DNA of 63,264 nucleotides, filler included, from Licmophora abbreviata (Eukaryota), in assembly GCA_900291995.1 (NCBI GenBank). It is 11 parts of 11 records of this genome, joined end to end, with 100 filler letters (N's around TTAATTAATTAA, not from the genome) between each part and the next. Parts side by side here need not be neighbours in the genome. Positions count along the whole stretch, not along the records: positions 1 to 13,067 come from OLMU01004415.1; 10 more parts are not named here. One strand, 5' to 3'. Shown here one piece after another: positions 912 through 46,872 of the stretch. The first letter of the stretch is position 1. Each line of letters begins with the position of its first letter. The position numbers were made by a program, and so were the translations under genes. The notes below the pieces were generated by a model. That model searched no databases, was not told the DNA's origin, and saw only the letters and a list, made by a program, of their open reading frames with translations.

Positions 912-2123
912 TCAAGAGGAGGGAGATTCAACCTCAGAGATCTTTTTCTGCAAGATATCTTGCAGCTGCTGTGCATCCTGTACCGCGCCCACCTTGATCA
1001 AATACGAGAGAACCTCTCCCGTGGGCGAGTTAGCATTGAGCTGCACGTGCTTCTCGCCTTTTCTCAAGAGTCTACAGTCGTTTCGAAGAGACAGATTAAA
1101 TAGGAGCTTGTGACTTGCTTCCTGTCGCTGAACAATGCGAGCGTGGCCCATTGACCGCTCAAGCACCCGAAGAGGTCCAATACCCACTTCGTGCCATTGC
1201 TTCTTTTGTGAAGTTATGTTGCTGCTGGTCTGATCCGCCTTGTTCGTGCCTTTATCGGCGTTCGTTTCTTCTGGACTTTCATTCTTTGACGCATCCGCTG
1301 GCTCGGTTACTTTGGAATTGGCGTCAGCTTTGACATCCTCTTGAGGCGTTTCAGCATCCTTCTTCTCACTTTTCTCTGTTGCAGCTGCATCGTCCGATGT
1401 CGACAAACTCAATGCCGGTGCAGTTGACGATGACGGCGGCACCGACGGCGCAGCAGGTTGCTGTGTCTCACCCGGCTCCTCGTCGCTGCTGGCACGCAGC
1501 TCGAAGAGCTTGGCACGAATCGTGAAAAGACACTCCTCTTCTTCTTCTCCATTGGCCACTTCAACCTTGTCGGGGAATTCTACCGCTGAGTCAGTCGATT
1601 TACCGTTCGATGGCGCCCCAAAGGCGCTATTTGTAGATCCAAGGGCCCCAAAGCCTGAGGGCGCTCCACTTCCAAAGACACTACTACTGGTCGTGGCGTC
1701 GCCATTGCTTGCCACACTACCAAAGCCCGAAGTCGTCGCGCTCGTTCCAAACCCAAATCCATTTGTCGTAGTGGTGGAGGAATTCGCCAATGTATTTGCA
1801 AACGCAGCACCAAAGACACCGGCTCCACTATTGGCGAGAGCAGCGGCGAATGGATTCGTGGAAGTCGCAGCCTGAGGCTCTGGGCGTTTGACCTTGACGA
1901 TCCGTCGTTGTTTCAAAGTCTCTTCATCTGCCTTTTGGAAAGTCCCGCCATTGACCGCGAGTTCACTCTCGTTTTCTTCACCGTCCTCACGATCGTCCTT
2001 GGTGATTTGTCGGTCGGCAGTGCGCTTTTTGGACGGCTCTTCAGAGGGCGGGGCTTCGGCGGAGCTTTTCTCCTCTTTTTTGGCTTCTTCCGCATTATTT
2101 TCTACGCCATTGTCATCTACCAT
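912..2123 (-). CDS. NUP50: Nup50/Nup2-like nucleoporin
   Basis: N-terminal KKRTADRQITKD and FQKADEETLKQRRIVKVKR (Nup50 importin-alpha-binding segment), central FG repeats, C-terminal RanBD-like sequence (NGEEEEECLFTIRAKLF...WHEVGIGPLRV). Confidence 0.8.
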   Translation of the reverse strand: MVDDNGVENNAEEAKKEEKSSAEAPPSEEPSKKRTADRQITKDDREDGEENESELAVNGGTFQKADEETLKQRRIVKVKRPEPQAATSTNPFAAALANSGAGVFGAAFANTLANSSTTTTNGFGFGTSATTSGFGSVASNGDATTSSSVFGSGAPSGFGALGSTNSAFGAPSNGKSTDSAVEFPDKVEVANGEEEEECLFTIRAKLFELRASSDEEPGETQQPAAPSVPPSSSTAPALSLSTSDDAAATEKSEKKDAETPQEDVKADANSKVTEPADASKNESPEETNADKGTNKADQTSSNITSQKKQWHEVGIGPLRVLERSMGHARIVQRQEASHKLLFNLSLRNDCRLLRKGEKHVQLNANSPTGEVLSYLIKVGAVQDAQQLQDILQKKISEVESPSS

Positions 2124-2573
2124 GATTGAGAAAGTGTTTCACAGAGTAAACTGGAGACGGGATGCCAGAACAGCGGACGAAAAAGGTGCTGTTAGACCGG
2201 GCCGATGGTCATTGCTGTAGTGTGATCAGAATTTCGCTGACAGCCTGGCGGCATTCACACACTCTCTCAACAGTCACACCTCCGGGTGCTAACGTTTTGA
2301 GCTTCTGTATCATTCGTACGAGGTCTTCCAGGAATTTAGTTCAACTTTTACGAGGCAACTTGAAGTCTTTCTGTGTGGCTGGCTCCCAGTAGCCACCAGT
2401 ACTTCCCCTACGGCGCGACATCGGTGACGCACTTGAGCATCTTCTGCTATTTTGGATGGATGATGTGAGAGAGCGGTTGATGGTTGCTCTGGTGCGACGC
2501 TGCACCATTGATTCATTGCGTTGGAGATTTCATCCGAGTTCATCCAGACACGATCCAAAGCAGTGTTCTTAAG

Positions 2574-3110
2574 ATGGCCCCTGTAAGTTTCTGTGGACGT
2601 TACAACATGATGAGGTGTAGAGAACGACGAGGAGCGACTGGCTGGGCTGAATGAATCAATCGCTGCGCGGCCCTTTGAGAACCGGATGATGTCTCCGCAC
2701 ATCATGCGCTCCCCACACCGATAATTTGTGGCATGATGACGACGACTGTCTCACGGTTTCCCCCCTTTCATTTGCAGTCTAAGACTATCCTCCAGGCTGC
2801 CAGCCTTGCTGTTGGAGCTGCGGCCTTTGCCCCGTCTCCTGCCTTCTCGCGCAGTTCAGCTCTGTCTGCTGGAAAATCCACCAACGATGGTCTTTCCCGT
2901 GAGTATTGAAAGGCATGCCGACCTATAATATTTTGAGGCCAGAGTGTTCTCACTGTTCTTGTTTATTTTTGAGCAGACAGCACCCATGGACCCAACTGCC
3001 CCTGTTGCTCCAAGAAATCGCATGGCGACGGCTGTCCGTGTTGTGCCGTCAAGTGCCTCTGCAGAGTTCCAGGACTCTGTAATACGGGATGTCCTTGTGT
3101 TTGCCATTGA
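2574..3110 (+). CDS. Small plastid-targeted Cys/His-rich, metallothionein-like protein (87 aa, 3 exons: 2574-2582, 2778-2898, 2977-3110)
   Basis: Manually spliced with canonical, phase-compatible introns (GTAAGT..TTTGCAG; GTGAGT..GAGCAG). Product MAPSKTILQAASLAVGAAAFAPSPAFSRSSALSAGKSTNDGLSHSTHGPNCPCCSKKSHGDGCPCCAVKCLCRVPGLCNTGCPCVCH. Confidence 0.75.
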
Positions 3111-3820
3111 TGACACAGAGTGCGAGGGAGCCATTGCATGAAGAGCAGATAGTGGAATCGTCTATGTAATTCCCTAGCAATCAAGCTAACTACTTAAAAC
3201 TACAATACGGATGGACGATGAAGCGTGATGGTGCTGTGTGCAATGTCGTATGATGTGGTACAAACCTAAAACATCGTATCCAGCCGTTACATGACTATCT
3301 CCTCTAGCTCTACATGACGCTATCTCAATGGAGCAGAGCAGCAAGGTACTACTAGTATACCCAGAGAAGTACCGGTACCTGTAATTGTAGTTGTGCAGGC
3401 TGCGAAGCACATCCGGCTTCACCCATCTCATTGGTGCGAACGTACGGAGGAAGGACTGATGAGTCAGGAGTTAAATACCATACTTATCTTCCATGATTTA
3501 TTGTAAGCCAAAAATAGCTATAAATATCGCACTTTCGGAGAGTGCGACTTCAGGTTGACTGCCATCATCCAACTTCCAACTTCTCTCGTTGTCGACATGG
3601 ACCAGAACCTCAAGACCAGTTCAATTTCTGAAGGACGACACGGAAGAAGACAAGCATCAGTGAAACGTCTCCGCTACAAGTAGCCAGTTCGTGGATAGCG
3701 GCTTACCATCCATCTGTTGAGACCCAGCACAGAACGAAAGACAACGAAGACACAGAGAAAACAGAGAGTCAAATCATTCCTGTCTATTTTGAAGCGAAGA
3801 AAAGTAGATCTCACATCATC

Positions 3821-5875
3821 ATGATGATTGAAGGTGAAAAGATTGATGAGGACACCGTGCTAACTCCTACATCCTCCATGACATCGCTCTCCCCCGAAAA
3901 TAACTTTTATCAGGCCACCTTGAATGGCTCGACGGCATCTCCGCTTCATCACAGCAAGACAGAAGATGAGCACCACCAGCAGCCACACATTCCACCACCA
4001 CTCGCCTCGCATCAGATCCCGAACATCGAGTTTCCCACCCCCTCTCTCCAGCCCAAAAAGAAGTCGTCTGGATTTACCCCGATATACGTCTCATCCAGAG
4101 TTTTGCAATATATTTCGCAGACTTGGTTATTCGGACGTTCCTCTGCACAGCAACGCGAAGACAACAGCAAACTGTACGCTTCCACTTGGATTGGTTTCTG
4201 GGCGCTCTTGCACGTGACTTGCGCGAGCTACGTCCTGACACCCATGCGAGATGCAGTCGCACTCGCCGTCGGGGTCCAACACATGCCCACTCTCACCTTG
4301 GCCAGTACAGCCTTGGCCGTCGTGAGTTCCGTTCCCATTGGGTGGCTTTTCGAAGCGCCTGATCCCGAACGGCGCAAAGTTTGGAAGCGCATGGGACTGA
4401 CGCGAGGCGAAACGCAGGGCACGTCGCTGGCCTTGTTCTATCGATGCTTTGCCTTGTCGATTTTGTCCTATGCTGTGGGTTTTAGAGGAGTGAAAATGCT
4501 GCAGAGCAGTGGAATAAGTGGGGAAGGATGGCCTATCTTGGCATCTCTGGGACAGTTTCTCTATGTGGCATTCTTTCTGGTTGTGCATCTGATGAAGCTG
4601 CACTCCTTGTCGCTAATCTGGGGTGTCACGACGGAAGCCATGGAATACGAAGAAGTGGCTAGAAAGCAGCACCGTGGATCCAAGACGCGATTGCAACGAT
4701 TGGCCTTTATTGGATTCGGTGGAACTCTTGGAGGAATCCTAGGAAGGTAAGAGTTACTGGTGATTCGGGAATGCCGACACTTACTCGATGATTGGATCTC
4801 ACTTGTCCTTCCTATTTGATTTTTTATTCTTTTCAGCGTCATTGCTTCATCCTTGGCGCGTATTCTTCACATGTCAGGTCTTCTTATCGTCGCAGCTCTG
4901 CTGCTGGAAATCTCGGCCGAGCTGTCCATCGAGTTGGGACGTATCATGCAGATGCACTGGGAAGATCAGCAGCTCTTCCGCAGCACCGACAACCTTTCGT
5001 CTCTAGACACGAGCATGGTGCGCTCCACGTCGCTTGGCAGTATGAAACGGGTGGCATCTGGAAACTCTCTCCACAGCAAGGCCAAGCACTGTATGAGCTC
5101 TGGAAACTTGTCGAAACTGGCTGAGGAGCCCCCTGTGACGGAAGTGAACGAAGACTCCTTTACGCAACGACTCAAGCGTGGAGTCACAACCATTCTCCGA
5201 TCTCGCTTGCTCATGGCAATCTTTACCTACAATGCTCTCTATGCTTCCACATCAGTCTTGCTTAGCTTCCAGCGTGCTGCTCTGGTCGTCAGTCGCAACA
5301 CGACCTCTTCCACGGAGTCGGATACTGCATTCTTGGCCAATATAAATATGACAAGCTCGATGGTAGTGTTTCTGCTGCAGTTCAGCGGCACGGGTGCGTT
5401 CATTGCCCACAAGTGCGGATCACGCTTGACTCTTGCGCTCATGCCCATCATTCGGCTACTTGGAGTGTTATGTTTGGCCTGGTGGCATGTGACTTTCCAA
5501 GGTCAACCTCCAAACCTGTTCCTATTTCTAATGCTGGACGAGTGCACTCGTGTCATGAACCTCGCAGTGGCTAAGCCGGTGCGAGAATCGCTTTGGCGTG
5601 GTCTCTCCAATGAGGCTCGATACGAAGCCAAACCGATCGTCGATACGCTGGCCAATCGATGGGGAGGTGGCTCTGCTGCATTCCTGGTAAGCCTCATGGA
5701 CAAGGCTCTTGGTTGGATTGGCACAACGCCGAATCAAGACGGCTCGAGAGACATGTTTGGATTTCCTCCCGTCTTGTTTCTCTGCATGTGTGTCGCTGCC
5801 TGGTGGGCGGTGGTCAGTGCTGATCTTGGACATATTCGGAGGCGGATCGACCTTGAACTCAAGAAGCACCAGTAG
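3821..5875 (+). CDS. MFS transporter, NTT/TLC (ATP:ADP antiporter)-like; intron 4747-4836
   Basis: Many TM segments; LTPMRDAVAL..GV near the N-terminus and KPVRESLW..LSNEARYEAKPIVDT near the C-terminus, as in TLC-like carriers. The splice joins the two ORFs in frame. Confidence 0.75.
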
Positions 5876-43147: not shown

Positions 43148-43747
43148 ATGAAGCTTGCCATCGCCGCCTCCCTTGTCGCCTCCGCTGCCGCCTTCGCCCC
43201 GTCGAAGAGCTCGGTCCGCTCCTCGGTCGCCACCAACATGGCGTTCGACGACGAACTCGGAGTCCAGCCTCCTCTTGGATTCTTCGATCCCCTCGGCATG
43301 CTCGACGGAGCCAGCGAGGAACGTTTCGAGCGTCTCCGCTTGATCGAGCTCAAGCACGGACGTATCTCCATGCTTGCCGTTGCTGGATTCCTCACCACCG
43401 CGGGCGGTGTCCGTCTTCCGGGAGACATTGACTACTCCGGAACCTCTTTCGAGTCCATCCCTGCCGGATTCGCCGCCCTGTCCGTCGTCCCCAAGGAGGG
43501 AGTCGGCCAGATCCTCGCCTTTGTCTTGGCTTTGGAGTTCATCATGCGCGACAACAGCGGAACTGGTGAATTCATCGGTGACTTCCGTAGTGGAACCATC
43601 GACTTCGGCTGGGACACCTTTGATGAAGAGACCAAGCTATCCAAGCGTGCCATCGAGCTCAACAACGGCCGTGCCGCCATGATGGGAATCTTGGGTCTCA
43701 TGGTCCATGAGCAGCTTGGAAACCTCGGAACCGTCATCCCCATCTAA
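43148..43747 (+). CDS. LHCF: Fucoxanthin-chlorophyll a/c binding protein (Lhcf type)
   Basis: ASAAAFAP presequence; ELGVQPPLGFFDPLG, ELKHGRISMLA, ELNNGRAAMMG. Confidence 0.96.
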   Translation: MKLAIAASLVASAAAFAPSKSSVRSSVATNMAFDDELGVQPPLGFFDPLGMLDGASEERFERLRLIELKHGRISMLAVAGFLTTAGGVRLPGDIDYSGTSFESIPAGFAALSVVPKEGVGQILAFVLALEFIMRDNSGTGEFIGDFRSGTIDFGWDTFDEETKLSKRAIELNNGRAAMMGILGLMVHEQLGNLGTVIPI

Positions 43748-45662: not shown

Positions 45663-46872
45663 CTATGCTTGTTCCACTTTGGCTGGTACATCCATGAAGA
45701 AGTCATTGATCGTATCGGTGTAGTAATCAGGTGTGATTGTATTCTCCGGACTCAACAACTTTTCTTCCGACGTGACTCCACTCAAGACCAAGACGCTCTG
45801 CAAACCATTGTCGGTTCCAAACAAGACATCGGTATCAAGTCGATCGCCGACCATACAGATTCGACTCTTCTCGCACCCCAACTTGTCAGACAGGTAATCA
45901 ATCATAAGAGGAGACGGCTTGCCAACCACCGTTGGTTCCTGCCCTGTACATCCTTTGATAGCACCGACCATACTGCCGTTGCCGGCCCACTCTTGTGCAT
46001 CCGTCAAGTGCGTCACTGCATCGAGGTTGGTGGCAATGAATTCACAATTTTCATTCTCGTTAATGCACAACTGCGCGTACTGAATCTTGTAGTAGTTGAC
46101 GAACCGATCAAATCCCACAATGACCGCACCCACATCCTCATCGTGCTCCAACATACCACCGGGACCCATATCCGGCTGACGATCCTTATCCTCCGGTCCA
46201 CCGATCCACGGGACCCCAATCAAGTCCAACTCTTCACAAATCCCCACTTCCCCCACAATGTAAACCTTCTTACCCGTCTCTTTGAAGTTGGTCTGTTCCA
46301 AATAGGCAGCGGCAGCAAAGGAACTGCTAAAAATTTCTTGGGCCGGAACATCCGTCAATCCGAGCGAGTCAAACTTCTTCTTGTAGCCCGCACGCGATTT
46401 CGTACTATTGTTGGTGACAAAGTACATCTTCTTGCCCAAGGCACGGAGCTTCTGGAGCGTCTCGGGAATACCGTCAATCAAAGAATCGCCCTGCATTTAG
46501 AAACGTTGGAGAACGAAATAAAGTAGCAAAAGGGAGCGTTTGTTAGAGAAACTTTTACTCAAGAACACGATGCTTGTCTGAATTGTCGAATACTACTATA
46601 ACTACGATACGTACTCTCCAGATGACACCATCACAATCAAAGATGAATACATCCGTCTTGTCCAGAAGCTGTGACATGGGTTCACTGAGTTTCGCAACAT
46701 TGGCACGGAGCATCGTACCGCTGAGAGCACGGCGTTGTATCGGCCACGACGACGAAACAAGCTTCTTGGAAACAGCATGACGCGTCGACGAAGCGACGCC
46801 GAACGCTCGAGGAGCAAAGGCCGAGGAAGACGAGATGAGTAAGGAACTCAAAGCGAGCATTGTGAACTTCAT
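45663..46872 (-). CDS. PGP: Plastid-targeted phosphoglycolate phosphatase (HAD IIA); intron 46491-46614
   Basis: SSSAFAP presequence; FIFDCDGVIW, FVTNNSTKSR, VVGKPS, MVGDRLDTD. Confidence 0.93.

Follow-up and report, generated by a model that had tools for sequence, protein, structure and literature searches.

Much of the carbon fixed in the sea is fixed by diatoms, whose growth is frequently governed by the supply of Zn, Cd, Co, Cu and Fe. To our knowledge, it is largely unknown how metals are buffered and handed on within the four-membrane plastid. The metallothioneins described so far are, as far as we know, cytosolic. With His-containing metallothioneins such as cyanobacterial SmtA/BmtA and the plant Ec types, the peptide considered here shares its small size, a Cys content of about 27%, CC and CxC motifs, the lack of aromatic residues and a small number of conserved His, which could act as ligands alongside the thiolates. 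Unlike the described metallothioneins, it appears to be synthesized as a longer precursor that carries a bipartite plastid leader.

Among diatoms, dinoflagellates and haptophytes, metallothioneins are predicted only in Symbiodinium and Thalassiosira pseudonana according to the passages of PMC7216689 considered here, which name a single predicted diatom metallothionein, XP_002296843, and none in an organelle (PMC7216689). As the sole diatom metallothionein prediction in those passages, XP_002296843 of Thalassiosira pseudonana is the nearest comparator in taxonomic terms; it is not among the matches of our protein searches with exon 3, with P0002 (the homologue described below) or with their alignment. 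A full-text search of openly accessible papers returned no description of a natural plastid-targeted metallothionein in the abstracts considered. Likewise, none is described in the passages considered of PMC7216689, PMC8779346, PMC9502191 and PMC4329603.

Another described system to which the locus can be compared is the bipartite presequence of the ASAFAP type. Passages of PMC4329603 state that plastid import depends crucially on the Phe at +1 within the 'ASAFAP' motif, that ASAFind demands F, W, Y or L at this position, and that the transit part is hydroxylated, contains few acidic residues and is net positive (PMC4329603). The window, i.e. the whole stretch of 63,264 nucleotides of DNA analysed here, contains two other genes with leaders of this kind. 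One of them, at 43148-43747 (+), is intronless and encodes a chlorophyll-binding antenna protein of 199 aa (PF00504, E 5e-33) with an ...AAAFAP leader. The other, at 45663-46872 (-), encodes a HAD-type (phosphoglycolate-phosphatase-like) protein with an ...SSAFAP leader on its first exon; its single intron (GTACGT...TGCAG) extends from about 46555 to about 46496. The antenna protein places the organism among the algae whose complex plastids are red-derived and, judging by the ...AFAP that it and the HAD phosphatase also carry, ASAFAP-type leaders are in use in this organism.

For positions 2574 to 3110, the initial annotation had proposed a three-exon gene encoding a short Cys-rich peptide; its coordinates and counts were all reproduced (Table 1), and both exon junctions are backed by the colinear homologue P0002 (see below). 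The start ATG stands in the context aagATGg, and the 9 nt assigned to exon 1 are its coding portion only, without 5' UTR. Exon 2 (2778-2898, 121 nt) ends with the first base of a split His codon at 2898, exon 3 covers 2977-3110 (134 nt including TGA), and the joined coding sequence of 264 nt yields 87 aa plus stop. Donors (GTAAGT at 2583, GTGAGT at 2899) and acceptors (TTGCAG to 2777, CAG to 2976) are canonical and similar to the sites of the intron in the HAD-type gene mentioned above. Exons 1-3 share one genomic frame, and the intron lengths of 195 and 78 nt are both divisible by three; since both introns hold in-frame stops, the leader is joined to the Cys domain only via splicing. A 265-nt contig of depth 2 is identical to 2854-3118, intron 2 included. 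It is most likely DNA or unspliced material and therefore uninformative on splicing.

Table 1. Features of the proposed gene and competing signals, in window coordinates
Feature	Position	Strand	Evidence
Exon 1, coding part, ATG GCC CCT (MAP)	2574..2582	+	Sequence; P0002 starts MAPVS
Intron 1, 195 nt, GTAAGT...TTGCAG	2583..2777	+	Contains in-frame stops (2652-2654, 2676-2678)
Possible alternative start within intron 1, ATG ATG in frame	2733..2738	+	No Met in P0002 at the corresponding position
Exon 2, first 16 codons, rest of the putative signal peptide, GAAA end	2778..2825	+	Aligns from P0002 residue 59
Exon 2, transit-peptide-like part, Phe first (2826-2828), FAP motif	2826..2898	+	Composition; P0002 alignment; rule in passages of PMC4329603
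Intron 2, 78 nt, GTGAGT...GAGCAG, 40% GC	2899..2976	+	Contains in-frame stops (2907-2909, 2970-2972)
Competing AG acceptor 4 nt further 3', shift to Cys-poor frame	2979..2980	+	Shifted frame unlike P0002
Exon 3, coding part, Cys/His-rich domain	2977..3107	+	All 12 Cys invariant vs P0002
Stop codon TGA	3108..3110	+	Sequence

A phmmer search with the exon 3 frame (45 residues) matched 6 of 1,835,955,588 protein representatives at E <= 0.001. One of these, P0002 (146 aa, E 2.4e-5), matches query residues 3-45 with its C-terminus. P0002 is a complete ORF in a transcriptome collection, originates from another marine alga and is the sole member of its 90% cluster; the design is therefore transcribed in another organism. 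Exon 2, which was outside the search query, displays 56% identity to P0002 residues 59-91 (pairwise E 1e-7), and this similarity begins exactly at the first residue past the proposed acceptor (2778). Exon 3 aligns with P0002 residues 100-145 (E 5e-15) with 24 of 46 positions identical, and these 24 invariant columns include all 12 Cys, three His (5, 17 and 45 in the 45-residue frame) and, in addition, two each of Gly and Pro and one each of Asn and Lys. As the matches follow each other at 59-91 and 100-145, the products of exons 2 and 3 are colinear with P0002, in which leader and Cys domain are contiguous and the linker is nearly as long as that of the window peptide. Not one of 2000 composition-preserving shuffles reached the observed P0002 score, neither for exon 2 nor for exon 3. 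Joint conservation of the putative leader and the Cys/His domain in a second species is directly supported by these alignments, and the same homology directly supports the predicted joining of the exons at 2582/2778 and 2898/2977. In our view, the locus very probably represents a genuine nuclear gene, and its host a diatom-like alga (an ochrophyte whose plastid has four membranes).

The N-terminus of P0002 reads MAPVS, corresponding to the MAP micro-exon plus a translated GTAAGT-type donor, and read-through in the window also gives MAPVS. Thereafter similarity is lost, and it is back at the Ser-Lys that opens exon 2. The interior of intron 1, if read through, displays no significant similarity to P0002 (221 of 2000 shuffles reach its score). 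We infer that residues 4-58 of P0002 may represent a retained in-frame intron of 165 nt, and that the spliced form would have 91 residues. Presumably, the ORF caller of the transcriptome collection holding P0002 keeps ORFs of at least 100 aa; a retained intron together with such a threshold would explain why only the unspliced-type form of 146 aa is found in the databases. Residues 4-58 are open over 55 codons and contain a hydrophobic stretch; if they were translated, the plastid leader would be buried inside the protein.

Assignment of the start codon is less certain than the remainder of the gene model. The ATG codons at 2733 and 2736 are in frame with exon 2 and, if intron 1 were kept, would provide a longer leader without a micro-exon. 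Because P0002 has no Met at the place equivalent to 2733, the conserved MAP micro-exon is favoured as the start.

A different 3' end of the product was also considered. The initial annotation had named transcripts using the AG at 2979-2980 as the outcome that would speak against the peptide: exon 2 would then continue into a frame starting PPMDPTAP, giving a Cys-poor product of ~97 residues, and if this were so, or if the locus were silent, the Cys-rich product would not be made. The two CAG acceptors are only 4 nt apart, and a score for codon and amino-acid usage, with 14 long window ORFs (21777 nt) as its training set (mean 8.6, SD 5.8), prefers the rival frame (+11.9) to the Cys frame of exon 3 (-17.8); exon 2 in the proposed frame scores 8.7, which is typical of the training set. 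However, this score mostly mirrors the rarity of Cys, since a synonymous-only codon score leaves the frames unseparated (Cys frame 0.049, rival 0.121; training mean 0.057, SD 0.070), neither being significantly preferred. Homology does not side with the PPMDPTAP frame, which has no alignment to P0002 at E <= 100, a score equalled by 1707 of 2000 shuffles, and no Pfam match, whereas the Cys frame is conserved in P0002 with all 12 Cys. In addition, the proposed acceptor is the first CAG 3' of the pyrimidine tract. Failure of the locus to produce the Cys-rich peptide thus appears highly improbable. Use of a third AG (2972-2973) would lengthen the product by one codon and leave the Cys frame unchanged. 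For the opposite-strand ORFs at 2310-2750 and 2856-3161, neither a Pfam match nor support of any other kind was obtained.

At the N-terminus, features of both the window peptide and P0002 support the bipartite plastid presequence read by the initial annotation. The first 19 residues contain one Lys followed by an Ala/Leu/Val-rich stretch (mean Kyte-Doolittle 1.0; best 11-residue window 1.85) and resemble the leader of the antenna protein. Phe is found at +1 of the predicted cleavage site in both proteins (GAAA-FAP in the window peptide, GSA-FAP in P0002), so that the window peptide carries one of the residues F, W, Y or L expected there in the ASAFAP type, and both proteins follow the local pattern FAPxPxFS. 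The transit-like stretch of 24 residues contains 7 Ser, 1 Thr, 4 Ala, 1 Arg, 1 Lys, 1 Asp and 0 Glu; with 8 hydroxylated, 2 basic and 1 acidic residues it is net positive, as ASAFAP-type transit parts are. The likeness to the presequences outlined in passages of PMC4329603 extends to a short Ala/Leu-rich putative signal peptide, predicted cleavage at ...A-FAP and a hydroxylated, net-positive stretch (PMC4329603). Compared with the usual ASAFAP-type proteins, the cargo is only ~41-44 residues long, with a leader of about equal length, and the initiator Met is located on a micro-exon of three codons. Neither a twin-arginine nor a second hydrophobic domain follows the leader of the window peptide, which would make the stroma the likeliest destination. 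Based on these sequence features, the product is quite probably targeted to the plastid.

The last 44 residues of the window peptide contain 12 Cys and 4 His, and no F, W or Y. In a six-frame scan of the whole window, comprising 40473 stop-free 44-residue windows, only two hold 12 Cys, both of them in exon 3, and the next-best holds 9; no second Cys-rich frame is present within the 63-kb window. The domain is laid out as two HGxxCPCC units (an internal duplication), a CxC, a PGxC element and a terminal GCxCxCH. Its two CPCC motifs, its CxC and its CxCxC are all kept in P0002, and Cys makes up 27% of the residues. The double HGxxCPCC unit is absent from every described family searched. Of the designation metallothionein-like, as given in the initial annotation, the compositional part stands (12 Cys in 44 residues, no aromatics), and the peptide displays the features by which metallothioneins are operationally recognized, namely small size, high Cys content, CC and CxC motifs and absence of aromatic residues. 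By sequence, it matches no described metallothionein family in Pfam at E up to 10. Hence we use the label in a compositional sense only. Judging by composition, we think it likely that the peptide binds metal.

Searches against family and structure databases were similarly without match. The exon 3 peptide hit 0 Pfam families at E up to 10, P0002 hit 0 at E up to 5, and a profile search of the PDB gave no sequence match at E up to 10. An AlphaFold model of the peptide has a pLDDT of 58, i.e. low confidence, and such low values are common among peptides whose folding depends on metal. The nearest cluster in the ESM Atlas is an insect-type metallothionein cluster which, at 0.75, lies below the meaningful level and represents a weak lead; a second ESM Atlas query returned no usable match.

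These data may suggest a mechanism by which a metal-binding peptide is delivered to the plastid. Following the targeting rules outlined above, the putative signal peptide of 19 residues would direct entry of the precursor into the ER lumen that surrounds the plastid, with cleavage before Phe20. The Phe-initiated, Ser/Ala-rich and net-positive stretch of ~24 residues would then mediate passage across the inner membranes to the stroma and would be removed there, leaving a peptide of ~41-44 residues. Going by its composition, this mature peptide would probably fold around Zn(II), Cd(II) or Cu(I), with 12 thiolates and up to three imidazoles as putative ligands. Metallothionein domains with 11-12 Cys bind about four divalent ions, and by analogy about four divalent ions per peptide may be expected. 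In terms of composition, it could act much as a metallothionein does, buffering metal within the plastid, storing it or donating it. We give roughly even chances to the chain as a whole, i.e. a real gene, plastid targeting and a metallothionein-like function in buffering, storing or donating metal. The link to carbonic anhydrases drawn in the earlier reading is speculation.

Other functions have to be weighed against a metal buffer. The peptide might be a plastid zinc-knuckle mini-protein, in which a treble-clef or zinc-ribbon module binds a protein or nucleic acid partner (e.g. as an assembly factor or regulator) instead of buffering metal. This idea draws on five of the six phmmer matches (P0001 and P0003-P0006), which align only through SHGxGCPCCA; P0001, P0003 and P0005 were scanned and contain repeats of PF14311 ('probable treble clef zinc finger'), and the same repeat is recognizable by eye in P0004 and P0006. 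SHGxGCPCCA differs hardly at all from the second zinc knuckle in the PF14311 (DUF4379) repeats of P0001 and P0004, and the low-confidence model places short helices directly after each CPCC, as may be expected of such a module. The HGxGCPCC unit thus serves as a zinc ligand set elsewhere, and by analogy this resemblance may be taken as a lead for the window peptide. However, the window peptide has no PF14311 match at E up to 10, and the first half of that domain is missing: a W-x-C...H first knuckle is absent, so that only the GCPCC knuckle is shared, and the peptide has one C-terminal domain only, which is small and much richer in Cys. With 12 Cys in 41 residues, vicinal CC and a CxCxC run it is denser in Cys than structural fingers, and it has no aromatic or hydrophobic core residues. 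We regard a zinc-knuckle function as unlikely. P0001 and P0004 are proteins of 663-682 aa with six or seven PF14311 treble-clef repeats, each of which ends in GCPCCAG, a unit that is almost the same as the second HGxGCPCC of the window peptide. As relatives of the window peptide, P0001 and P0003-P0006 were dropped, the shared part being the SHGxGCPCCA unit only, with PF14311 present in the three that were scanned.

A peptide with this many Cys could also act through thiols and disulfides without any metal, either as a redox switch in the plastid, where CP12 works as a peptide of this kind, or as a disulfide-knotted peptide of the secretory pathway. The number of invariant Cys is even and would permit six disulfides, the precursor opens with a putative signal peptide, and small secreted Cys-rich peptides are common. 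Against this, the +1 Phe and the conserved FAP motif point to plastid import and not to secretion, and the stroma is reducing. Vicinal CC and CxC pairs combined with His, moreover, are typical metal ligands and awkward in disulfide knots, and the window peptide has such pairs along with three invariant His; a purely thiol-based function therefore appears decidedly improbable. An even smaller probability, in our opinion a very small one, is left for a plastid mini-protein carrying an Fe-S cluster. Some Fe-S enzymes do carry CPC and CxC motifs, an example being ferredoxin-thioredoxin reductase in its catalytic chain, but the window peptide has no Pfam match at E up to 10, Fe-S families included, and displays no CxxCxxCxxxCP spacing. 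A relation to the CPC/CHC motif of ferredoxin-thioredoxin reductase was dropped for want of a profile match.

Additional relatives of the peptide were sought. A word-indexed protein search with exon 3 against proteins of 80-2000 aa returned nothing beyond P0002; with P0002 residues 58-146 against proteins of 80-256 aa, one of five candidates was real, namely P0002 itself; and the alignment of exon 3 and P0002, searched against proteins of 24-83 aa, gave no relative. Scans of nucleotide collections, which are a poor sample of diatom nucleotide data, yielded 179 pattern matches in metagenomes (three passed tblastn, none of them a relative), 131 in prokaryote genomes (five passed, again none a relative) and 13 in viruses (none passed). 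The three metagenome matches that passed tblastn each had a single CPCC motif inside a long, Cys-poor ORF and were rejected. In an exact look-up, 0 of 10 ATG-to-stop ORFs of the window were present in the protein collection; absence of the protein from this collection therefore says nothing on the genome's own annotation.

If the reading proposed here is true, the plastid peptide stayed invisible because it has fewer than 100 residues, starts on a micro-exon of three codons and matches no family profile. Micro-exon precursors of 87-91 residues fall under the usual thresholds for ORF calling, and the sole database relative, P0002, was caught as an ORF of 146 residues, compared with 91 residues once the putative read-through of intron 1 is removed. 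A conserved Cys/His peptide with a plastid address constitutes a concrete candidate for a role in plastid metal handling. It may even be, although we place this at somewhat less than an even chance, the first genetically encoded metallothionein-type peptide that resides inside a plastid, serving algae whose complex plastids are red-derived as a stromal buffer or donor of Zn, Cd or Cu, with conservation in at least two species. In that case, current models would lack a dedicated protein component of trace-metal handling in the diatom plastid.

Several other observations were made in the surroundings of the gene. An ATG-started frame of 38 codons occupies 2456-2572 (+), its TAA (2570-2572) ending one base before the ATG at 2574; if the transcript begins upstream of 2456, this frame would form an upstream ORF right next to the start codon. 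A divergent gene with a NUP50/RanBP1 domain lies at 912-2123 (-), and its ATG is 450 nt away from the ATG at 2574. This gene and the Cys-peptide gene probably share a short bidirectional promoter region. Directly downstream, at 3632-5875 (+), two long open frames of 372 and 351 codons are found, with no Pfam match at E <= 0.01; they probably belong to a single, intron-containing gene for an unknown protein resembling membrane proteins. Twenty runs of exactly 44 N (880 N in total), which have the look of masking and not of gaps in the assembly, are present at ten places within 13068-59445 of the window, in pairs that are 12 bases apart.
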